Source: an archaeon
Lineage (GTDB): Archaea; Iainarchaeota; Iainarchaeia; Iainarchaeales; JAAZKV01
Assembly: GCA_036170245.1 (NCBI GenBank)
Contig: JAVHOV010000013.1
Span: 1-19,637 of the forward strand
DNA: 19,637 nt
Reading direction: 5' to 3'
Part shown: piece by piece, positions 9,171 to 19,637 of the stretch
Numbering within the stretch: the first letter of the stretch is position 1
Layout of the letters: each line of letters opens with the position of its first letter
Position numbers and translations under genes: made by a program
The notes under the pieces: model-generated
Database searches by the model: none
Seen by the model: only the letters and a program-made list of their open reading frames with translations
Told to the model about the DNA's origin: nothing

Positions 9171-10403
9171 TCAAAACCACTGATTCAATCTAGTTTGGGA
9201 TTTAAACTGCTGAATCAAAAAAGATTTCTTTTTGTACTGATCCATTGGAACTGTGAGTTTCTTTGAGAGAAACTCCAAAGTCAAATCAAGAGTTGAAAAA
9301 GTAAGGGGCTTTTCCTTTAATGCAGCTCGAACATTTTCTCTAATCTGCCAAACTCCCAAAGGAACTGCATAATCTTTGCCAACCTCTCTAAAAACAATTG
9401 CTGAAGCATTTAATTTTTTGTCATACAAATATTCTGTTATCGCTAAGCGAGCTGCAAAATAAGCCCCTTCAGTTTCTTTTGGATATCCAACAAGCCCGCT
9501 ATTCAATTCATAATCAGACATGACATTAAAATCTGTTGCATCTTTAGTCCAAACTCCCCCAGGAAGCCATACTTCAATCTGCTCAAAACTCCAAGGATAG
9601 GGAAGGAGCATTATCCAAAAATCATTATCCAAATACTTTGAATGAAATAACTCAAAAGAATCAATCAATTTATTTTGAGGAAGTTTTTCTTCAATAAAAA
9701 ATTTTGATAAATTAGAATCAACTGCAGTAATACTCCAACGTGTTGGAACAATCTTTCTATGCTTCTTTACCCCTAAAGCTCCGCTAGAAAGAACTTTTGC
9801 TAATTGAGAAACAGGAACCCCTTTTAGAAATAAATCAATTAAAGCAGTATTTGCTTTTGCATCAGTATCAGAATTATAATAATCAATCTCCTTTGGAATG
9901 CTTGGATTTTCTAGTAAATTTATTTTATTTAATTTTGCACTCGGGCCTAAAGGGGCAGTGAAAGAATCAAAAGAAGTTTCCAAAATCGGTTTATTTACTA
10001 AACTCACTTCCATTTCAAAAACATTTGTGCTCATCGCAATTTCCTGAAAACCAATTAACTCATAATTCGGATCGGAGGCTAAAGAAACAGGCATAGTTTT
10101 ATAGGAACGAAGAAGGGATTCTCTAAAAGAAATTATTTTCTCCTGGGGAGTGCCGTACCATTTTTCAGGCAAATCACTAATTGGAGAAATTTCGCTTGGA
10201 AGGGCACTTAATGGAGCAACTGCAACTTTTGGATAATTTTGCCAAGAAACAAAAAAACCTGGGGGGGAAGCTCCAACAAAATCTGTACCCACCATGCTTG
10301 AAACAATCTTTGAACTTGAACTGGATTTTTCAAGAATAGGACATCTACTCAATCCACACAATAATTTTCCTTTGCACTTAATACACAAATCAGGAGAAAT
10401 CAT
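9171..10403 (-). CDS. nreA: Archaeal Nre-family DNA repair protein (PCNA-interacting)
   Basis: N-terminal CIKCKGKLLCGLSRCP, SPPGFFV..NYPKV, VPTRWSITAVD, YFAARLAI.EYL, PLGVWQIRENVR and a C-terminal PIP box QTRLNQWF. Confidence 0.93.
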   Translation of the reverse strand: MISPDLCIKCKGKLLCGLSRCPILEKSSSSSKIVSSMVGTDFVGASPPGFFVSWQNYPKVAVAPLSALPSEISPISDLPEKWYGTPQEKIISFRESLLRSYKTMPVSLASDPNYELIGFQEIAMSTNVFEMEVSLVNKPILETSFDSFTAPLGPSAKLNKINLLENPSIPKEIDYYNSDTDAKANTALIDLFLKGVPVSQLAKVLSSGALGVKKHRKIVPTRWSITAVDSNLSKFFIEEKLPQNKLIDSFELFHSKYLDNDFWIMLLPYPWSFEQIEVWLPGGVWTKDATDFNVMSDYELNSGLVGYPKETEGAYFAARLAITEYLYDKKLNASAIVFREVGKDYAVPLGVWQIRENVRAALKEKPLTFSTLDLTLEFLSKKLTVPMDQYKKKSFLIQQFKSQTRLNQWF

Positions 10404-10539: not shown

Positions 10540-10572
10540 TCGGTGTGCAATTGATAGTTGCAAGGTGGAAAA

Positions 10573-10956
10573 GTGGCTTTTGGAAATATTGTTAAGGATG
10601 TAAAGAAAAATGTGCTTCCACAAAAGAGCACGCCAAGTATTGCACAAAATGACATGACTGGCGCTATCATGGATAACCCTAAACCTAAAGCAGAAAAACA
10701 AGATATTTCTTACAAAGATTCAGAAATACAAGGATTTGTTCCACAACCTAGATCATTTGGTTCAAGACAGAACAGCGACCCTAGATGCGGAAGTATAATC
10801 AAAAACATAGCAAATGCTTCAAGCTCAAGCTCACAAATGGGTGCTGACACTTCTTGGGAAAATTGCAAATTCAGAAAAACAAATTCTGGAAGAGACTTTT
10901 GCGCAGAGTTTCACTCATTATGCGCAAAAACTGGTTGCAGAAGAGCAAGAAGGTAA
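10573..10956 (+). CDS. Hypothetical protein with C-terminal four-Cys motif (paralogue 1)
   Basis: Start reassigned to GTG at 10573 (AAGGTGG RBS; gives MAFGNIV, parallel to MAFNSLI of the next gene). C-terminus WENCKFRKTNSGRDFCAEFHSLCAKTGCRRARR. Confidence 0.8.
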   Translation: MAFGNIVKDVKKNVLPQKSTPSIAQNDMTGAIMDNPKPKAEKQDISYKDSEIQGFVPQPRSFGSRQNSDPRCGSIIKNIANASSSSSQMGADTSWENCKFRKTNSGRDFCAEFHSLCAKTGCRRARR

Positions 10957-10982: not shown

Positions 10983-11444
10983 ATGGCGTTTAACAGTCTA
11001 ATAGATGACACAAGAAGAATGAATGCAAAAATGATTGCAATGGGACAGAGTATTGATATACAAAAAATACCTAGGCCAAAAGCTGGTTCCCAAATGGCAC
11101 AAAAACAAGCAATGTTTACTCCAAGCGGAAGCGATGTAGAAAAACTGCTTTACCCTAAGAACTTCAAAGCAAGAGTCTATGAAGAAGAAACTCCAAAAGT
11201 AGCGGCTAATGCCCAAATGGTTGAAGAAATACAAGTACAAGCAAAACAACCAGCAAGAATAATCGGAGACGATGATATAACTTACAGCACAAACAAAAAA
11301 CAGCCAACTGAAAGAAAAGAAATGGATCTTTCAGGACCAGCTTGGCAAAGATGCAAACACTACAAACAGCAAGGCGGAAGAGATTTTTGCAAAGAATATT
11401 TAAGCCTCTGCGGAAAAGGAAAATGCTTAAGAGTAAGAGTATAA
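10983..11444 (+). CDS. Hypothetical protein with C-terminal four-Cys motif (paralogue 2)
   Basis: AAGGTGA RBS. C-terminus WQRCKHYKQQGGRDFCKEYLSLCGKGKCLRVRV is homologous to that of the upstream gene. Confidence 0.82.
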   Translation: MAFNSLIDDTRRMNAKMIAMGQSIDIQKIPRPKAGSQMAQKQAMFTPSGSDVEKLLYPKNFKARVYEEETPKVAANAQMVEEIQVQAKQPARIIGDDDITYSTNKKQPTERKEMDLSGPAWQRCKHYKQQGGRDFCKEYLSLCGKGKCLRVRV

Positions 11445-11527: not shown

Positions 11528-13228
11528 ATGCCAACTGATTATTTAGAAGACATTATAGGCGCTGCAAAAGCAACTACTGCTAAAGAAGAAACTACTCCAA
11601 AAAAGGAAGAAGCTACCAAAGCAAAACCTGAAGACAAGGAAGAACAACTGGCACAAAATGTACAAAAAAAAGATTTTAAGGAATTCAAGCAGACAATGGA
11701 ACATGAAACAGAACAAGAAAGTGAAATGGAAGAAAAAACAGCAATTGAAAAAGAACTTGAACAAAACAAAAAAGTTGAAGTCAAAAGTTATGGAAAAGTA
11801 AAAATCTATAAAGTCCCTGGAAAACCATTAGCATACTATTTTACTCCAACAGTAAGACCTACTGGAGTAGAAAGAAAAATAATCAACACACTAAAAGAAG
11901 CAACTACAAGATTAATTTCAATTATTCCTTACAAAATAAGGAATCCTGAAGAGAGAAGAATAATTTACAAACAAAAAATAATTGAAATAATTAGGAGCAA
12001 CCCAAATTTAAGAATCCCTGAAAGCAGAACAAACTTTTACGCAGAAGCGGTTGTAAGAGAAATGGTAGGGTATGGATTAATTGATGATTTAATCAAGGAT
12101 GACCAGCTAGAAGAAATAATGATTGTTGGACCAAAAAAACCGGTTTATGTATTTCACAGAGAATACGAAATGATGCTGACAAATATCGAATTTTATTCAG
12201 AACAGGAAATTGAGGATCTTGTAAATAAAATTGCAAGAGAAGTTGGAAGAAGAGTGGATGTAGCTGCGCCTCTACTTGATGCAAGACTTGGAGATGGATC
12301 CAGAGTTAATGCAACAATTCCTCCAGCAAGTATCAGCGGAGGAACTATTACTATTAGAAAATTCCGTCAAGACCCTTACTCAATAATTGATTTAATAAAA
12401 ATTGGAACAATGTCAAGCGAAGTTGCAGCATTTTTGTGGCTCTGCGTTGACGGATTTGGAACAAAGCCTGCAAACATATTAATCTCAGGAGGAACAGGAT
12501 CAGGAAAAACAACACTACTAAACGTACTTGCTTCCTTCGTTCCGGATAGAGAAAGAGTAATTACAATTGAAGATACTGCTGAATTAAGTCTGCCAATAAA
12601 ACACTGGATAAGGCTTGAAGCAAGACCACCGGGACTTGAAGGAACCGGAGAACTAAGAATGGATGTACTCACAAAGAACTCGCTGAGAATGAGACCTGAC
12701 AGAATAATTGTAGGAGAAATTAGACACGAAGAAGCATTCACGCTATTCACTGCACTTAACACTGGGCACGATGGATCTCTTGGAACCGTTCACGCAAACA
12801 GTGCGGAAGAAACAATAATTCGTGTAACTTCACCTCCAATGAATGTACCAAGCGTAATGCTTTCAGGACTTGACTTTGTAATAGTTGAACATAGATATTA
12901 TGATAGAAAAAAAGGAACTATCAGAAGAATAAGTGAAATCGCTGAAGTATATGGAGCAATGGAAGGAAAACCACACACAGAAACAATATTTCAGCGTGAC
13001 CCTGTAAGAGATACTTTAGAAAGAACATTAATTGAAAGTAAATACCTAAAAACTCTTCAAAATTTTACAGGATACGGAAGAGAAAGAATAGAAGCTGAAC
13101 TTGTTGCAAGACAAAAGTTTTTAGAAGAAATGAAAGATAAAAATATTAGAGAACTAAGCGAAGTATCCGAACAGGGAAAGAACTTTTTAGAAAACAGAAA
13201 ACTGGCTGGTGAGGAAAATGAAATTTGA
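11528..13228 (+). CDS. Type IV pilus assembly ATPase (CpaF/TadA/VirB11/ArlI family)
   Basis: PLLDARL.DGSRVNAT, TIRKF, Walker A GGTGSGKTT, Asp box TIEDTAEL, LRMRPDRIIVGEIR and His box NTGHDG..GTVHANS; acidic low-complexity N-terminal extension. Confidence 0.95.
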   Translation: MPTDYLEDIIGAAKATTAKEETTPKKEEATKAKPEDKEEQLAQNVQKKDFKEFKQTMEHETEQESEMEEKTAIEKELEQNKKVEVKSYGKVKIYKVPGKPLAYYFTPTVRPTGVERKIINTLKEATTRLISIIPYKIRNPEERRIIYKQKIIEIIRSNPNLRIPESRTNFYAEAVVREMVGYGLIDDLIKDDQLEEIMIVGPKKPVYVFHREYEMMLTNIEFYSEQEIEDLVNKIAREVGRRVDVAAPLLDARLGDGSRVNATIPPASISGGTITIRKFRQDPYSIIDLIKIGTMSSEVAAFLWLCVDGFGTKPANILISGGTGSGKTTLLNVLASFVPDRERVITIEDTAELSLPIKHWIRLEARPPGLEGTGELRMDVLTKNSLRMRPDRIIVGEIRHEEAFTLFTALNTGHDGSLGTVHANSAEETIIRVTSPPMNVPSVMLSGLDFVIVEHRYYDRKKGTIRRISEIAEVYGAMEGKPHTETIFQRDPVRDTLERTLIESKYLKTLQNFTGYGRERIEAELVARQKFLEEMKDKNIRELSEVSEQGKNFLENRKLAGEENEI

Positions 13229-14324
13229 AACAAGCACCAACAAGGAAGAAGTTGACCAAATCGTTGAAACAATGAAACGAAAGTACAGAGCAGAAGGAAT
13301 GGAGTTTGAAGAAGTATCCGGCGGATTAAAAGAGCTAAGAGGAATAATTGCAGAAGATACTTATGCAAAAGCAGATATTGTTAACAAAGATGATTTAGAA
13401 ACATTTAATTCAAAACTTGCACAAGATGTGGGAGGCTTTTACTTAAAAATGAGAAAATGGCTAAACCCAATAAAAGAAGGATTAAAAAAATTCCCGCTAA
13501 GTAACGAAACTGGATACTACCTTTATTCAGCAAACATGAATTATTCTTCAAATCAATACTTGGCACTTGCAAGTGCAGCAGGATTAATAGCACTATTATT
13601 TGGATTCATTGCAGGATTATTTTTGGGAATAATATTTGCAGCGGCTACAAGAAATTATGCCCTTGCAACAATACTCCCTGTAGGACTAGCTCTTTTAGGA
13701 TCTATAGTAACAATGGTAATTATTTTAGATATTCCAAGACAAAAAGCAAATGCTAGAGGAGACGCATGCACTGCAGAACTCCCATTCGCATTAAGACACA
13801 TGGCAACTGAACTAAAAGCAGGCTTAGGATTATACAAAACAATACAAGCAGTAACCGCAGCAAACTATGGAATACTAAGCGAAGAATTTGCAAGAACAAC
13901 AACTGAAATAGAAGAAGGAACAGAAACTAGTGTAGCACTAAAACACTTAGCACTAAGAACACAAAGTAAAGCTCTGAAGAGCGCAATAAATCACATGCTA
14001 AGAGCAATGAGAGTAGGAGGAAACTTATCAGATATTATGAATGAAATCGCTGAAGAAGTTTCAGATGACCTAAAAAACAGAATAAATACATTCTCTCAAA
14101 AAATGAATTTCTTTGCAGTAATATTTATTTTTGTGTGCATTGTACTGCCTACAGCAATATTAATACTTGGAGCAATAAGAAACTCAGCAACAAGCGGAGG
14201 ACAGGAATTATTTAAATCAATCCCATTAACCCCCCAAGTAATGATAATCTTTTACTTAGTAATAATGCCACTAATATTTATCATGTTAAATTATTTTGTT
14301 TATATCTCTCAACCAAAAATGTGA
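13218..14324 (+). CDS. Type IV pilus platform protein (TadC/PilC, T2SSF domain)
   Basis: ELPFALRHMATELKAGLGL, YGILSEEF and GGNLSDIMNEIAEE plus TM segments. ATG at 13218 follows a GGTGAGG RBS and overlaps the ATPase 3' end. Confidence 0.92.
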   Translation: MKFETSTNKEEVDQIVETMKRKYRAEGMEFEEVSGGLKELRGIIAEDTYAKADIVNKDDLETFNSKLAQDVGGFYLKMRKWLNPIKEGLKKFPLSNETGYYLYSANMNYSSNQYLALASAAGLIALLFGFIAGLFLGIIFAAATRNYALATILPVGLALLGSIVTMVIILDIPRQKANARGDACTAELPFALRHMATELKAGLGLYKTIQAVTAANYGILSEEFARTTTEIEEGTETSVALKHLALRTQSKALKSAINHMLRAMRVGGNLSDIMNEIAEEVSDDLKNRINTFSQKMNFFAVIFIFVCIVLPTAILILGAIRNSATSGGQELFKSIPLTPQVMIIFYLVIMPLIFIMLNYFVYISQPKM

Positions 14325-14337
14325 AGCGTGAAAAAAT

Positions 14338-15303
14338 ATGAGCCCACTTGAAGACCCAACTAATAAAATAAAAGCAATACTTTACGTAGCATACAACAAG
14401 CTAACTGAAAATACTATTATTCAAAAATATCAAGGGTGGCTTGAATTTAGCCAAATAAATTATCCTGCCCCCATTTGGCTTGGAGCTTCAGTTGCAATGA
14501 GTCTATTTGCAGCAATAATCGCATTCGCTTTAAGTTCAATACTAATTTCAGAGTTTACCTTAATCCCATTTTCATTTGCACTTGCAACATTAATCTTAAT
14601 GGCAGGATACCCCTACATGAAAAAAGAATCACTAATTGATTCAGTTGAAAAAAACTTTAGTGATGCACTAAAACAAATGGCTGACACACTAAAAGCAGGA
14701 GATACTTATGAAAATGCATTAAGAGAAGTAGTTGAAGCAGATTACGGAAGATTATCTGATGAAATGCAACTTGCATTAAGAAGAATGGAAGATGGAGAAA
14801 ATTTAGACACGGCACTAACAGGATTTGCTAATAGAATAGATTCACTAAGAGTAAAAAGAACAGTAACTATTATTCTTGATTCAATAAAAACAGGTTCATC
14901 TTTATCAGACATCTTAAACGAAATCGCGGATGATTTAAGAGACTACCAAAGATTAAAAGAAGATAGAAAATCAAGCACAACAATGCAATTTCTTTTTTTA
15001 ATAGCAGCAGGAGAATTCATTGCCCCAATAATATTTGGAGAAATCGGATCAGTAATGAGCGGATTCACCGCAATCGGATCAAGAGAAATTAATATGGGTA
15101 CACCCACAGATAATTTCTTAACAACAATAATTCAACTTTACATTATTATAGAAGTAATTGGATCAGGAGTTATGATGGCTTTGATTAGAGAAGGAAAAAT
15201 TAACAAAAGTATTATATACATCCCACTACTATTATTAGTAGCATTTGTTATTTATCACTTGTCAAAAATTATTATTACTGGCGTGGTAATAGGTTCAATG
15301 TAA
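14338..15303 (+). CDS. Second type IV pilus platform protein (TadB/TadC, T2SSF domain)
   Basis: FSDALKQMADTLKAG, YGRLSDEM, GSSLSDILNEIADD and a C-terminal MALIREGK plus TM segments. Confidence 0.92.
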   Translation: MSPLEDPTNKIKAILYVAYNKLTENTIIQKYQGWLEFSQINYPAPIWLGASVAMSLFAAIIAFALSSILISEFTLIPFSFALATLILMAGYPYMKKESLIDSVEKNFSDALKQMADTLKAGDTYENALREVVEADYGRLSDEMQLALRRMEDGENLDTALTGFANRIDSLRVKRTVTIILDSIKTGSSLSDILNEIADDLRDYQRLKEDRKSSTTMQFLFLIAAGEFIAPIIFGEIGSVMSGFTAIGSREINMGTPTDNFLTTIIQLYIIIEVIGSGVMMALIREGKINKSIIYIPLLLLVAFVIYHLSKIIITGVVIGSM

Positions 15304-15316
15304 CGGTTGATTAATT

Positions 15317-15466
15317 ATGATGGAAGAAAAAGCACAAGTAAATTTAGAATACTTACTAATTGTAGTAGCAGGGGTTGCTCTTGTTACAATAGTTGCAATA
15401 TACATTAAAGCAACTGCAAATACTGCTGCAAGCGCTGCAAGGGACCAAGCAGCAAATACTAACTAA
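15317..15466 (+). CDS. Small type IV pilin with class III signal peptide (49 aa)
   Basis: Below the ORF-track cutoff. MMEEKA|QVNLEYLLIVVAGVALVTIVAIYIKATANTAASAARDQAANTN: KA|Q cleavage site, Glu+5 and a hydrophobic helix. Confidence 0.88.
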   Translation: MMEEKAQVNLEYLLIVVAGVALVTIVAIYIKATANTAASAARDQAANTN

Positions 15467-15485
15467 AAAATCCTAAAAAGCAAGG

Positions 15486-15493
15486 TTTAAAAA
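15486..15493 (+). promoter_or_regulatory. Internal TATA box (TTTAAAAA) for the putative major pilin
   Basis: Preceded by purine-rich AAAAAGCAAGG and followed by a strong RBS, AAAGGAGGG (15523-15531). Confidence 0.55.
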
Positions 15494-15538
15494 TAACAAA
15501 AACATAATAAAATCTATAATTTAAAGGAGGGAAACCGC

Positions 15539-15727
15539 ATGGAACAAAAAGCGCAAGGAGCAATAGAATACTTACTAATAATTGGAGCAGCTATTTTGGT
15601 TGTTGCAATAGTAATAATCGCATTATCAGGAGTTTTGACAGGAGCAAAAGCTGACCAAAACGGAATGAGCGATGTTAACACTGCAAAAAACACATTAAAA
15701 GATGATGCAAATTTTCCAACAAACTAG
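15539..15727 (+). CDS. Type IV pilin with class III signal peptide; likely the major pilin
   Basis: MEQKA|QGAIEYLLIIGAAILVVAIVII. It has its own promoter, the strongest RBS in the cluster and a downstream hairpin. Confidence 0.9.
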   Translation: MEQKAQGAIEYLLIIGAAILVVAIVIIALSGVLTGAKADQNGMSDVNTAKNTLKDDANFPTN

Positions 15728-15739
15728 TAAATACTTTTT

Positions 15740-15783
15740 TTGAAAAAGGCCTTTAACTAGGTCTTTTTCAATTCAATTTTTTT
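15740..15783 (+). terminator. Stem-loop plus T-tract after the putative major pilin
   Basis: TTGAAAAAGGCCT-TTAACT-AGGTCTTTTTCAA (15740-15771; 13-bp stem with one G-U), flanked by T runs. Confidence 0.65.
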
Positions 15784-15876
15784 AATTTCGGCTCAAAATA
15801 TTAATCAATTTTTTGAACCTAAAAGGCTTATATACTTGAAATCATAAATTAATAGATTACAAGAAAGGCTAAAATC

Positions 15877-16200
15877 ATGAATTACAAAGGACAAGGATCT
15901 TTAGAATACTTAATGCTTATCGCAGCAGCGGTTGTTGTAGTTGCAATTGTAATTTCATTTATTGCAAGTGCGATTGGTCCTGTGCAAAGTGCAGGAAGCC
16001 AACAGCAATATGATTATTTATGCAACACACTAAATGTCCATAATTTTACTTGTGGTTGTTATTTATGTGATGTTTCACGAAAAGGAGTTAGTGATGCTTC
16101 AGGCAAAATAGAAGTACCTGGCATAGACACTTGTCTTGCACTTGCAAAAAAACTCAATGAACCTCTTCTAAGCGGATGCAATGCGTTAGATTTTAAATAA
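15877..16200 (+). CDS. Minor type IV pilin with Cys-rich head
   Basis: MNYKG|QGSLEYLMLIAAAVVVVAIVI; six Cys in the C-terminal domain; NFT sequon; upstream TATA-like CTTATATA at 15827-15834. Confidence 0.88.
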   Translation: MNYKGQGSLEYLMLIAAAVVVVAIVISFIASAIGPVQSAGSQQQYDYLCNTLNVHNFTCGCYLCDVSRKGVSDASGKIEVPGIDTCLALAKKLNEPLLSGCNALDFK

Positions 16201-16229
16201 AACTTTTATTTTTGAAGTGATTAAATAAA

Positions 16230-16403
16230 ATGGAAGAACGAGCACAAGTATCTTTTGAATACTTATTAACTGCAGCATTTGCAATAATGCTTGCAATATT
16301 TTCAGCAATCCTAGTAGAAACCCTTAGAGGAATAGCCCTAAAAGCACAAGCGGATATACTATCAACAAGAGCAAGAGTAATAGAAACTGTACTATCTAAC
16401 TAA
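16230..16403 (+). CDS. Small type IV pilin with class III signal peptide (57 aa)
   Basis: Below the ORF-track cutoff. MEERA|QVSFEYLLTAAFAIMLAIFSAILVETLRGIALKAQADILSTRARVIETVLSN carries the canonical QxSxE motif. Confidence 0.88.
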   Translation: MEERAQVSFEYLLTAAFAIMLAIFSAILVETLRGIALKAQADILSTRARVIETVLSN

Positions 16404-16489
16404 CAATTAACTTATTTTATTGGTTAATCTAATCCTGCAAAAAACAAAACACTAAGATTAAAAACCAGAGAAACAATTAAATTGAATAC

Positions 16490-17611
16490 ATGGAAATAAT
16501 TATCCTAAACCAAATCTTTTACATAGCAATAATTGTTTCAGTACTTGGGCTAATTGCAGCAACATATACTGACTTGAAAGAAAGAATTGTACCAAACAAA
16601 CTAAATTATGGACTTGCAATAATAGGACTAATTTTATTTGGCATACAATCCATAATACAATCAACCCCTTTACCATTTATTTACTCTTTTTTAGGAATGG
16701 CGATAGGCTTCTTTTTTGGTTGGGTAATGTGGAAAATAGGAATATTTGCCGGAGGGGATGTAAAACTATTCATGGGACTTGGCGCACTAAACCCATTTAC
16801 TCCCGCCCTAATTAAAATCGGAATGCTGACAAACTCAAGCATACCCCTATTTCCCTTAACTTTATTCTTGTATTCTCTTTTTGCATTTTTGCCATACGGG
16901 ATATTTATAGTAATAATAAAATTAGCAAAAAATAAAAAAATGCAAAAAGAAATATTAAAGGAAATGAAACCAAAAATATTACTCTCAATACACGCATCTT
17001 TTTTTACTTCAGCGGCATACACTATTTTAGCGGTTTACTCAATTAATTTGCTACTAACAATACCAATACTAATACTTTGGGGATTATTTAAGTCAAATAA
17101 AAAATATTTAACTATAATTTCTTTAATCCTAGCTTTAATTTTAAATTATGTTTTGTTAACCCAAGCACTAGTTGCAACAATATTAATCAGTGTAATATTT
17201 TACTCATTACTAAAACTATTATTCCTAGTGAAAAGAGTTCTTGTTAGCGAAGTAGATGTAAATAAACTAACTGAGGGAATGATTCCTGCAAAAACATTAA
17301 TCTGGAAAGGAAAAGAAGTGGTGGCACAAGAAGGAATAAATCTTAAAACTATACTTAACTTAATAAAAGATAAAAATTCCAATGCCATTAAAGAAATGCT
17401 CGCACCAAAAAAAGAAATTATCTCAGCAATTAAGGCAAGAGGATTAAACGAAGACGAATTAAAACTTGTAAAACAATTAGCAAAAAAAGGATTAATCCTA
17501 AAAAAAATGCAAATAAAAGAAAGTATGCCTTTTGTGCCAACAATGCTACTTGGATACATATTGTGTTTAATACTTGGAGATATAATATTTATCATGCTTT
17601 GGGGAATCTAA
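16490..17611 (+). CDS. Prepilin peptidase, family A24, EppA-like
   Basis: Catalytic Asp motifs TYTDLKERIVPN and AGGDVKLF, C-terminal MPFVP. The 373-aa length and extra TM helices fit EppA-type rather than FlaK/PibD-type enzymes. Confidence 0.92.
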   Translation: MEIIILNQIFYIAIIVSVLGLIAATYTDLKERIVPNKLNYGLAIIGLILFGIQSIIQSTPLPFIYSFLGMAIGFFFGWVMWKIGIFAGGDVKLFMGLGALNPFTPALIKIGMLTNSSIPLFPLTLFLYSLFAFLPYGIFIVIIKLAKNKKMQKEILKEMKPKILLSIHASFFTSAAYTILAVYSINLLLTIPILILWGLFKSNKKYLTIISLILALILNYVLLTQALVATILISVIFYSLLKLLFLVKRVLVSEVDVNKLTEGMIPAKTLIWKGKEVVAQEGINLKTILNLIKDKNSNAIKEMLAPKKEIISAIKARGLNEDELKLVKQLAKKGLILKKMQIKESMPFVPTMLLGYILCLILGDIIFIMLWGI

Positions 17612-17613
17612 CT

Positions 17614-18057
17614 ATGCAAAAAGGACAAGCAATTCTTGAATTTATTTTTCTTATTTTAATAATTGTAGTATATTTAGTTTCAACAACCATCCCAATGGTG
17701 AAAGATACTCAAAATATTATACAAGATACCCAAAACATAACTCGCGCAAACAACGAATGCCAAAAAATAAGCAATTCAATAAAAGAAATAAATTTATTTG
17801 GAGAAGGATCAAGACAAACTTTAATGGTATTCATTCCAAATAATACTACTATAACTTGTATCAATAACCAAATATCTTTTGAAACACAACTTACTCAAAC
17901 TCCATTCCCCCAAGAATGCCCAAACGGATTATGTGATAAAAACTTTAATCCAAATGCAGCATTACAATGCACAGTGGGTACAATAAAAGGACCTCAAAAA
18001 GTAGGAATTACAATTCAAAAAACAAATGGACTAATTGAATTTACACGAAGTGAATAA
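17614..18057 (+). CDS. Minor type IV pilin (147 aa)
   Basis: Start reassigned from 17563 to ATG at 17614, giving MQKG|QAILEFIFLILIIVVYLV; the globular domain has Cys residues and N-x-T sequons. Confidence 0.85.
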   Translation: MQKGQAILEFIFLILIIVVYLVSTTIPMVKDTQNIIQDTQNITRANNECQKISNSIKEINLFGEGSRQTLMVFIPNNTTITCINNQISFETQLTQTPFPQECPNGLCDKNFNPNAALQCTVGTIKGPQKVGITIQKTNGLIEFTRSE

Positions 18058-18058
18058 A

Positions 18059-18391
18059 ATGAAAAATAAAGGGCAAATTGCTTTTGAAAGCCTGCTTGTT
18101 CTACTGCTAGTCATTACTTCAGCTACTCTAATAACTACCCTCTATTTACAATTTCATGACGAAACAATTGCTTTAGGATATGCGCGAATAGGAGCTCTTG
18201 AAGAATTATCAAAACAAAAAGAAACAATAATAATTGAAAAAATTTCTATTCAACGCATTGGACTTACCCCCACAATAACTATTAAATTAGATAGAGAAGT
18301 AACTTTAGATACTACAAAAATTGCAAATATAATCCAAGCAAACACTGCCCTAAAAAATGTCCAAGTCCAAGTAGAAACCATACGACAATAA
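18059..18391 (+). CDS. Minor type IV pilin (110 aa)
   Basis: Start reassigned from 18035 to ATG at 18059, giving MKNKG|QIAFESLLVLLLVITSATLI. Confidence 0.85.
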   Translation: MKNKGQIAFESLLVLLLVITSATLITTLYLQFHDETIALGYARIGALEELSKQKETIIIEKISIQRIGLTPTITIKLDREVTLDTTKIANIIQANTALKNVQVQVETIRQ

Positions 18392-18438
18392 GCGAAAAGA
18401 AAGTAAGTTCTTTTTAAACCCACAAACAACGTTTGTAA

Positions 18439-18762
18439 ATGAACGAGAAACAAATATCACAAATATGCATATTAATCACTCTAATCAGTCTAATTGCACT
18501 ATTTTTAAGTTACAAACCAGATTTTGAAGAAAAAACAATTCAAGAGATTTTAGACAACCAAAACTCTAAAGGAAAAGTTTTTGGCAGAGTAGAATATGTT
18601 GTAAAAAATTATCCAGTAACTATATTCACTTTAACAGATGGAAATTCAGCCACTATTTACTACCCAAAACCAACCACCTTAGAAGAAAATAATTTTGTAA
18701 CAGCCTACATAGAAAACCAAGGACAAAAAAACTTATTTGCCCAAAAAGTGGTGAAAGATTGA
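18439..18762 (+). CDS. Membrane-anchored OB-fold protein (putative nucleic-acid binding)
   Basis: One N-terminal TM helix, then an OB-like beta pattern TIQEI..GKVFGRVEYV...TIFTLTDGN..TIYYP..LEENNFVTAY...LFAQKV. TATA-like TTTTTAAA at 18411-18418. Confidence 0.7.
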   Translation: MNEKQISQICILITLISLIALFLSYKPDFEEKTIQEILDNQNSKGKVFGRVEYVVKNYPVTIFTLTDGNSATIYYPKPTTLEENNFVTAYIENQGQKNLFAQKVVKD

Positions 18763-19637
18763 TTCTTTGGTGCTTACTCGGAATATGCGCAGGAATAATT
18801 GCAGGACTAATTCCGGGGTTGCACTCAAATAATATTGCAATAATTTTGGCAGCAACCCCTTTTTTTGGAATAGAAATAACTGCATCTATGTTATCAATGT
18901 GCATAACGCAATCGTTTGTAGAATTTATTCCATCAACATTTCTACTTGCCCCAACTGAAAATACTTTTGAAAGCATACTTCCCGCACACAGACTGCTACT
19001 TGAAGGAAAAGCAATTGAAGCAATAACACATACAGTACTAGGAGGAATAATTGCAGTAATAATCGGTTCTATACTAACTATTCCTTTTTTTATTTTCTTA
19101 GAACAAAACTCAAACCAACTGATTCTTTTAACACCCCTAATCCTTATTCTAGCAGTAATTATTTTTGTAACTGAAGAAAAAAACCCAAACAAAAGAATAA
19201 TTATTTTATTTATAATCATTGCAGCAAGTGCACAAGGCTTTTTATTCAAAAACCAAATCTTTCCTTTGATTACAGGATATTTTGGGATACCTGCAATAAT
19301 TTACGCATTAAAAGAAAAAGAAAGTGTTTCAAAAATAAAACAAAGTGAAAATTGTGAAATAAAAAAAGAAAGTTTGAAAGATGCTTTAATAGGAATCATT
19401 GGAGGAGCAATAGTTTCAGTAATGCCAGGAATTGGGAGTAATACGGCAGGAGGAATTATTAACGTTTTACGAAAAACAACTAACCCCCAAAATTATCTCA
19501 CAATGCTTGGGGCAATAAATGCTTCCAACTTTTTTTTCTCATTTGCAACAATGTTTGCATTGTCAAAAGCCAGAAACGGGACAATGATTGCACTTCAAGA
19601 CAAAATATTTTATACTCCCGAAACACTCTTTATAGGA
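18759..19637 (+). CDS. DUF112 / TctA-family (tripartite tricarboxylate transporter permease-like) membrane protein; runs off the window end
   Basis: Not in the ORF track. TTG at 18759 overlaps the upstream TGA (GTGGTGA RBS) and the frame is open to the window end: MILWCLLGICAGIIAGLIPGLHSNNIA...FVEFIPSTFLLAP...ILPAHRLLLEGKA...GAIVSVMPGIGS...KARNG. The G.IPGLH.N, LP.HRLLLEG and second PG repeat motifs are typical of archaeal DUF112/TctA. Confidence 0.88.
   Translation, partial: MILWCLLGICAGIIAGLIPGLHSNNIAIILAATPFFGIEITASMLSMCITQSFVEFIPSTFLLAPTENTFESILPAHRLLLEGKAIEAITHTVLGGIIAVIIGSILTIPFFIFLEQNSNQLILLTPLILILAVIIFVTEEKNPNKRIIILFIIIAASAQGFLFKNQIFPLITGYFGIPAIIYALKEKESVSKIKQSENCEIKKESLKDALIGIIGGAIVSVMPGIGSNTAGGIINVLRKTTNPQNYLTMLGAINASNFFFSFATMFALSKARNGTMIALQDKIFYTPETLFIG

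Follow-up and report, generated by a model that had tools for sequence, protein, structure and literature searches.

An EppA-type pilus operon of an Iainarchaeota genome with a built-in OB-fold/TctA-like gene pair: a candidate for ComEC-independent DNA uptake

Can an archaeal pilus operon carry its own candidate proteins for bringing DNA across the membrane, in a genome where ComEC is not found? This question is raised by a gene cluster on contig JAVHOV010000013.1 of an Iainarchaeota genome (GCA_036170245.1; 867 kb in 43 contigs, 86% complete). The window analysed is this whole contig (19,637 nt; C13 in our numbering). Entries of Diapherotrites/Iainarchaeum are the named relatives of the genome's proteins, and an Atlas cluster matched has Iainarchaeota as its commonest phylum, in line with this placement. 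From position 11528 its forward strand encodes an assembly ATPase, two platform proteins, four pilins, an A24 prepilin peptidase, two further pilins, a membrane-anchored OB-fold protein and a TctA-like protein (DUF112, PF01970), in that order. Intergenic gaps range from -11 to 149 nt, with 47 nt between the sixth pilin gene and the OB gene; the OB and TctA-like genes overlap by 4 nt (TTGA), and the latter is cut by the contig end. The original prediction had described this layout correctly and took it for a DNA-uptake locus. By analogy with Methanococcus maripaludis, we give a probability of roughly 0.6 to the reading that this EppA-type pilus operon, with its OB/TctA-like pair, is a DNA-uptake machine that works independently of ComEC.

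Counterparts in Methanococcus maripaludis and type of pilus

Natural transformation of M. maripaludis needs epd/eppA genes, which made up most of the screen hits, together with MMJJ_13020, MMJJ_13030, a thermonuclease, ArtE and a MinD pair (PMC10133366). MMJJ_13020 is an OB-fold protein with one helix and MMJJ_13030 is TctA-like, with 11 helices (Fonseca et al. 2023, PMC10133366); deletion of either abolishes transformation and was complemented, and the homologue in M. thermophilus is also needed (PMC10133366). A role for a TctA-like protein in methanogen transformation, which the original prediction had mentioned, is therefore real. The core idea is already in print, MMJJ_13030 having been proposed there, as a candidate only, to be a DNA transporter (PMC10133366).

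The published primers translate to SSLILNDKKI (start of the OB protein), FSGILGII (inside the TctA-like gene, about 500 nt from its start) and, for the end of that gene, TILYFLKI-stop. These fragments of 8-10 residues fit the start motif of the family, its invariant G160 and its C-terminus (PTILFYL in the family), and the primers show MMJJ_13020 and MMJJ_13030 abutting in the same order as the window pair. The nearest Atlas clusters to the window TctA-like protein hold archaeal DUF112 proteins of 389-402 aa, most commonly from Methanobacteriota (scores 0.97 and 0.96). The two loci thus have in common both families, their order, abutting genes, the lack of TctB and TctC, and the type of pilus. 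They differ in that the MMJJ_130xx pair lies apart from the pilus loci (MMJJ_082xx and 105xx), whereas the window pair lies inside the operon between pilin genes. A primer 500 nt before MMJJ_13030 also reads in frame like an OB start, which suggests that the M. maripaludis protein is longer and probably has two OB folds, whereas the window protein has one. The thermonuclease needed in M. maripaludis has no match in the window genome.

The pilus itself is assigned from its genes to the clade-1 type (Epd type), by four of the five features tested or testable. As in clade 1/system 1 Epd pili, a secretion ATPase and two TadC-like platform genes stand with many small pilins and a long EppA-type peptidase. 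All six window pilins carry a [KR]-[AG]-Q signal with Gln at +1 and Glu at +5, the signature given for EppA substrates (PMC3875500). By its length, helices and PF06819 domain the peptidase is of the long EppA type (9 helices) rather than the 5-helix PibD/FlaK type: crude hydropathy gives 8 helices, both catalytic Asp positions (D28 and D90) are invariant in 27 homologues, and PF06819 matched only M. jannaschii among 14 control genomes. Its residues 10-362 align with the NCBIfam EppA model at 41.8 bits, far under the cut-off of 450, and the best NCBIfam model for the ATPase is FlaI (289 bits against a cut-off of 550). No DUF2341 adhesin-like match was found among the 24 window proteins, the rest of the genome not having been searched for this domain. 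Pilus genes of Nanobdellati are described as rarely lying in one locus (PMC13705601), whereas the core pilus genes here form one operon.

Partners of other known systems were sought in five genomes (the window's own, two of its genus and two near-complete genomes of its order). The ComEC competence domain PF03772 was found in none of the five and matched in 10 of 14 controls. ComEC has three domains: an OB fold, a membrane translocator and a nuclease. The present kind of system resembles ComEC/ComEA in design, with pilus capture, an outward OB fold, a putative membrane translocator and, in M. maripaludis, a separate nuclease, and differs in that the parts are separate proteins without sequence kinship; the locus is not ComEC. 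TctC was found in none of the five genomes and TctB in none over the cut-off, with positive controls matching for both and a single sub-threshold TctB match in an 857-aa frame of genome G018. Likeness to TctABC is confined to the PF01970 domain; here there is no TctB or TctC, the protein has about 390 aa and an invariant PGxHxN motif, and its partner is an OB protein. The locus is not a tripartite tricarboxylate transporter.

Going beyond the gene content, order and conservation that were observed, we propose a mechanism in which the pilus (ATPase, two platform proteins and EppA-cut pilins) would bind extracellular DNA and bring it to the membrane. There the outward OB protein would keep hold of one strand or steer it, docked, as predicted, on its TctA-like partner. 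The TctA-like protein would act as a two-hairpin carrier that moves the strand, or short pieces, inward in ion-driven steps with no open pore. Imported DNA would go into recombination and repair, and its value as a nutrient would be incidental. The pair would be an add-on module, and the same pilus would probably also serve attachment. The locus belongs to a known kind of system; for the archaeal importer, it adds comparative evidence that the pilus and the candidate importer belong together, and it yields invariant residues of the TctA-like protein as well as a testable carrier-not-pore mechanism. Should the reading be right, natural transformation would occur widely among DPANN archaea; this would bear on gene gain by reduced genomes and offer a route to genetics in these organisms.

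Linkage of the pair to pilus genes within and beyond the phylum

The truncated TctA-like gene continues on contig C5 of the same genome (G000), which shares an exact 54-nt overlap with the window end and holds the remaining 95 codons, giving a full length of about 388 aa. Both stretches are present together on contigs 8545, 2160 and 5347 nt long that come from three runs of a single study and may be the source material. The TctA-like gene is followed on C5 by a Prok-JAB gene (2-nt gap; PF14464 over cut-off), four pilin-like genes, ABCE1, a NUDIX gene and pelota. Because C5 continues with pilin-like genes, the OB, TctA-like and JAB genes lie between pilins on both sides. No tctB or tctC lies downstream on C5, and the lack of such partners first noticed within the window holds beyond its end; the downstream inspection that had been suggested turned up the JAB and pilin-like genes instead. 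The HSHP-x7-S-x2-D motif of the JAB protein (L261:4798-5157 on C5, minus strand) looks intact.

Within the phylum, the TctA-like gene was matched in 58 of 61 relatives and in 96 of 121 genomes (94 over cut-off). Using 89 strong, near-full-length OB matches, we found the OB and TctA-like genes adjacent in 86 of the 88 genomes that hold both. Taking the best peptidase match per genome among the matches listed, 92 genomes have both a TctA-like and an EppA-like gene, on the same contig in 80 and on different contigs in 12; the two lie within 5 kb of each other in 69 of the 80 same-contig cases. Forty related loci, drawn from 57 non-self matches, were compared; 22 of them belong to other families, 14 to other genera and 4 to the same genus. 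The OB gene is present in 38 of the forty and the peptidase gene in 35. Linkage to the pilus is far beyond chance, because pilin-like genes stand on both sides of the TctA-like gene in 28 of the 34 loci with enough flank. The operon also occurs in three genomes of other orders (L160, L161 and L165). This fusion of the pair with a pilus operon across a phylum is new here, and the conserved linkage predicted for the locus extends through Iainarchaeota without being universal among archaea.

Family f28 gave no PF01970 match in 15 genomes. All eight f28 loci fetched (L152-L159) nevertheless have two genes at this place in the operon, an OB gene that has diverged and a fast-evolved membrane gene of 319-365 aa without the PGxHxN motif; they align to the OB and TctA-like family profiles (hhalign 96.3% and 94.5%). 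Co-loss of the pair in f28 was considered and rejected, the pair being present in diverged form and the peptidase kept. In several other families a DUF2101 membrane gene lies between the pilin 6 and OB genes (L035:10772-11338, minus strand); it is not in the window.

Outside the phylum, the TctA-like gene occurs in single copy in 132 of 151 Nanobdellota (Woese/Pacearchaeota) genomes, and its near-core status in two DPANN phyla is also new here. Table S4 of PMC4858521 (Makarova et al. 2016) places the TctA-like gene (arCOG04469), unmarked, in nine pilus neighbourhoods (eight of Methanobacteriales and one of H. volcanii). The order in Methanobacterium AL-21 and M. marburgensis is TctA-like gene, PrmA (opposite strand), clade-1 ATPase and TadC. 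From this table, Methanobacteriales appear to be a second lineage that links the TctA-like gene to a clade-1 pilus ATPase, a link previously unflagged; a search of the main texts of PMC4858521 and PMC13705601 for TctA gave no match. In the literature covered, which leaves out subscription journals and one supplement of PMC13705601, we found no paper that connects this pair with pilus operons or with DPANN archaea.

A tblastn search with the full-length TctA-like protein of a relative against 72,556 plasmids returned two records, each with an OB gene upstream. Both are cyanobacterial (L173:2565-10544 and L172:3886-6380) and pair a double-OB gene with an archaeal-type TctA-like gene, followed in a row on L173 by genes for a NERD protein and a PhnD-SNase fusion; L173 also has a kinase-GUN4 gene. 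A quick tree, which has long branches and no canonical TctA and was used for groupings only, nests these copies within archaeal sequences. Viral contigs yielded no relative, and a scan of the genome collection for methanogen loci returned only Woese/Pacearchaeota-type loci. Among 80 metagenome loci there is a TctA-like clade with no OB neighbour, in agreement with a remark on M. thermophilus in PMC10133366. A wider claim seems to us doubtful: that the lone TctA-like protein and its OB partner do in archaea what ComEC does in bacteria, by an elevator motion, driven by ions, in which single-stranded DNA is ratcheted through the membrane. The gene would then be near-core and single-copy in at least two DPANN phyla and joined with the pilus in one operon in Iainarchaeota, most DPANN archaea would be naturally competent, and the module would have spread to cyanobacterial plasmids.

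Predicted structures and competing explanations

The OB protein has one predicted N-terminal membrane helix and was modelled as an OB domain with a predicted local distance difference test (pLDDT) score of 93.8. No Pfam family matched the window copy; PF01336 matched 21 of 36 aligned homologues, and DUF4131 gave sub-threshold matches for two homologues (E 0.002 and 0.02). The best structural matches are the anticodon domain of AspRS (Z 12.5) and RPA (Z 12.4), at a root-mean-square deviation (rmsd) of 1.4 over 78 and 76 residues, followed by domains of PolD, MCM and CST; nearly all are nucleic-acid binders. The flank before the helix is the more positive one in 70 of 87 homologues, from which the domain is predicted to face outward, as had been proposed, rather than the cytoplasm.

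The TctA-like family has invariant residues H22, N24, D/E55, H77, K270, R272 and R368 (P0023 numbering). A full-length relative 82% identical to the window protein, with about 10 helices by crude hydropathy, was modelled (pLDDT 92.3) and shows helix-loop-helix pairs around its two PG motifs. Its best structural match is barley YS1 (OPT family, PDB 7wsr; Z 11.5, rmsd 5.3, 258 of 388 residues aligned, 9% identity); the next match has Z 6.5, and DASS, TRAP and AbgT carriers occupy lower rows. In YS1, two helix-loop-helix hairpins form an inverted repeat, and an elevator mechanism coupled to protons has been proposed for it (PMC9691689); it differs in its substrate, a small metal chelate. Foldseek with this model returned nothing at E 0.001, a sequence-profile search of solved structures found none, and ComEC is not among the fold matches listed, which does not exclude a likeness to ComEC. 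A carrier rather than an open pore is suggested by the model as a lead only, and it is new here; the channel with a basic pore that had been imagined for DUF112 is not borne out, the only clear fold match being an elevator carrier with hairpins.

A complex of this relative (chain 1) with the window OB protein (chain 2) was predicted at 0.58 against 0.00 for the best control, with runs agreeing in at least 93% of contacts and a partner pLDDT of at least 76. Of 157 solved complexes, 116 reached the mark used for such predictions, as did 2 of 215 mismatches; scores of 0.60 or less within that range, however, belong to only 18 of the 157 and to both mismatches, and the support is weak. A supposed OB-TctA fusion, a 518-aa frame in L049, was rejected: the frame is extended upstream, and the OB gene is read in a different one. 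No fusion turned up when proteins of 736-2100 aa were searched with the TctA-like profile, which is weak evidence.

Several observations weigh against DNA uptake as the function of the operon. Binding and transport of DNA by the pair are conjectural, and its orthology to the M. maripaludis proteins is suggested by family, gene order, short primer fragments and Atlas clusters. The OB domain, put forward as a DNA receptor, is at most a putative one and is acidic (net charge -1 here, median -3 in homologues), and the Y-x-G hairpin motif of 60 of the 87 homologues is not in the window copy. CcmE and YgiW, OB proteins that are not known to bind DNA, stand lower among its fold matches. A Z of 11.5 at an rmsd of 5.3 can be reached by helical bundles by chance, and an elevator carrier would suit small solutes better than a polymer. 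DprA was found in none of the five genomes and SNase (thermonuclease family) in one, which is not the window's own genome (86% complete). A pilus gene lies near the TctA-like gene in 1 of 80 Woese/Pacearchaeota loci, only 31 of which have 5 kb on both sides; of the 76 of these loci that include upstream sequence, 33 have the OB gene next to the TctA-like gene and 20 have it at another place in the locus; in 23 it was not seen. A full-length EppA-type match occurs, among the matches listed, in 5 of the 151 genomes of that group, most matching the catalytic half only. Housekeeping genes are kept in the related loci about as well as the pilus genes (JAB in 39 of 40, as tightly linked as the OB gene; ABCE1 in 31; pelota in 30), so general synteny is high and inherited synteny explains part of the pilus link. 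The window genome encodes five pilus ATPases and two A24 peptidases, a long and a short one. Elsewhere it encodes pilin-like proteins tipped with LamG or Lcl_C lectin domains (L262:612-2042, L262:4257-5651 and, on the minus strand, L263:355-1491) that carry the same +1 Gln signal as the cluster pilins; judged from these genes, the pilus likely has other jobs, which fits attachment to host cells. Lastly, the parts of PMC10133366 covered here report no piliation assay of the mutants.

That last point leaves room for the pair to be a pilus accessory, acting in assembly, as an energiser of retraction or as a basal anchor, in which case transformation would be lost through pilus failure and the true translocator would lie elsewhere. 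The pair is interleaved with pilins at junctions of 4 and 2 nt, and f28 keeps it in the operon even where the membrane protein is shortened to 320-327 aa and lacks the otherwise invariant PGxHxN. We regard this explanation as unlikely: the pair lies away from pilus genes in Woese/Pacearchaeota and beside nuclease genes on cyanobacterial plasmids, the homologue in M. thermophilus is needed too (PMC10133366), and Table S4 of PMC4858521 does not mark the TctA-like gene as a pilus component.

Feeding rather than gene exchange comes next, and is improbable. The TctA-like protein would then be an ion-coupled importer of DNA breakdown products (nucleotides or oligonucleotides of very few units) captured by the OB subunit in these small-genome archaea, for which the predicted elevator/OPT-like fold, the PhnD-SNase fusion beside the pair on L173, and the gene's single-copy presence in most Nanobdellota genomes can be cited. 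The PurD and PyrD markers of purine and pyrimidine synthesis, moreover, were not found in the window genome (86% complete). Whole plasmids, however, need the M. maripaludis counterparts to enter (PMC10133366). Scavenging is not required, because relatives that have both synthesis markers (G050 and G051) keep the pair and the window genome has its own class III ribonucleotide reductase (RNR); nucleotide scavenging is possible. That enzyme is encoded on contig C18 (G000:C18:6644-9679) in split form, as a 668-aa NrdD with MCCRL and a 56-aa gene with RVVGY, followed by an activase-like gene. An apparently inactive RNR homologue in the window had been cited in favour of scavenging, an argument that fails given the class III enzyme. 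The protein itself (513 aa, with an ATP-cone), 5 kb and five genes away from the cluster, is plausibly a dead NrdD-like paralogue, judging by its sequence: the CC and RxxGY motifs are not in place. No match was found in the PDB or to the genome's own NrdD, and its Atlas cluster, with neighbours in Iainarchaeota and Planctomycetota, has 15% NRDD members.

Quite improbable, in our view, is that the pilus serves host attachment alone and the pair is an unrelated or decaying passenger in an old gene string (JAB, phosphoglycerate mutase, ABCE1 and pelota). The conserved housekeeping genes and the lectin-tipped pilins are as this would have it; the TctA-like gene also lies more than 5 kb from the peptidase gene in 11 of the 80 same-contig cases among the matches listed, and it is frameshifted or split into pieces in L166 (G101) and L167 (G066), as pseudogenes or assembly errors. 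Against this, a different arrangement ties the gene to a clade-1 ATPase in Methanobacteriales (PMC4858521), and mutants of the pilus and of the pair share a phenotype (PMC10133366). That the protein takes in citrate-like acids as a normal subunit of a tripartite tricarboxylate transporter, as the PF01970 match over cut-off and database names would have it, is very improbable given the lack of TctC, and of TctB over the cut-off, in the five genomes, the JAB and pilin genes downstream, and a plasmid search in which both records returned had an upstream OB gene and neither was a canonical tctA.

Features of the window and neighbouring genes

Features of the pilus cluster and of genes upstream of it; positions are those of the window
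Feature	Position	Strand	Evidence
ATP-cone protein, 513 aa	4915..6456	+	
NreA DNA-repair protein	9171..10403	-	
Small unannotated gene	10558..10956	+	
Small unannotated gene	10983..11444	+	
Type IV pilus assembly ATPase, 566 aa	11528..13228	+	PF00437 E 5e-44; Walker A GGTGSGKT, IEDTAE, IVGE and TGH intact
Platform protein 1, TadB/C-like, 371 aa	13209..14324	+	PF00482 E 1e-20; alternative start ATG 13218
Platform protein 2, TadC-like, 321 aa	14338..15303	+	PF00482 E 2e-15
Pilin 1, 49 aa	15317..15466	+	KAQ signal, +1 Q, +5 E; PF04021 E 0.007, below cut-off
Pilin 2, 62 aa, candidate major pilin	15539..15727	+	PF04021 over cut-off
Pilin 3, 107 aa, Cys-rich head	15877..16200	+	PF04021 E 1.5e-7
Pilin 4, 57 aa	16230..16403	+	RAQ signal, +1 Q, +5 E; kept in 31/40 related loci
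EppA-type prepilin peptidase, 373 aa	16490..17611	+	PF01478 and PF06819 (Arc_PepC) over cut-off
Pilin 5, 147 aa, minor pilin	17614..18057	+	KGQ signal, +1 Q, +5 E
Pilin 6, 110 aa, minor pilin	18059..18391	+	KGQ signal, +1 Q, +5 E
Membrane-anchored single OB-fold protein, 107 aa, putative counterpart of MMJJ_13020	18439..18762	+	hydrophobic helix 6-24; model; OB matches
TctA-like protein (DUF112, PF01970), first 293 of ~388 aa, putative counterpart of MMJJ_13030	18759..19637	+	PF01970 E 4e-32

A 13-pair hairpin lies 3' of the pilin 2 gene (15740-15771), a weak signal given 6 terminator-like sites against 5.6 expected. A sigma-70 promoter scan of the locus stayed at chance level with a model unsuited to archaea.

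The divergent nreA gene lies directly upstream of the cluster, and an nreA gene is also found 3' of the TctA-like gene in the metagenome locus L187. Directly upstream of the ATPase gene, the two small unannotated genes share a C-terminal C-x(10-14)-C-x6-C-x4-C motif, with 52% identity over 33 aa; similar genes precede the ATPase gene in L055, L057 and L068, and the products are possible metal-binding regulators. The operon ATPase, 566 aa long here, has 1020-1110 aa in L032, L033, L035, L045, L156 and L159, where the extra length is probably an intein or an added domain.

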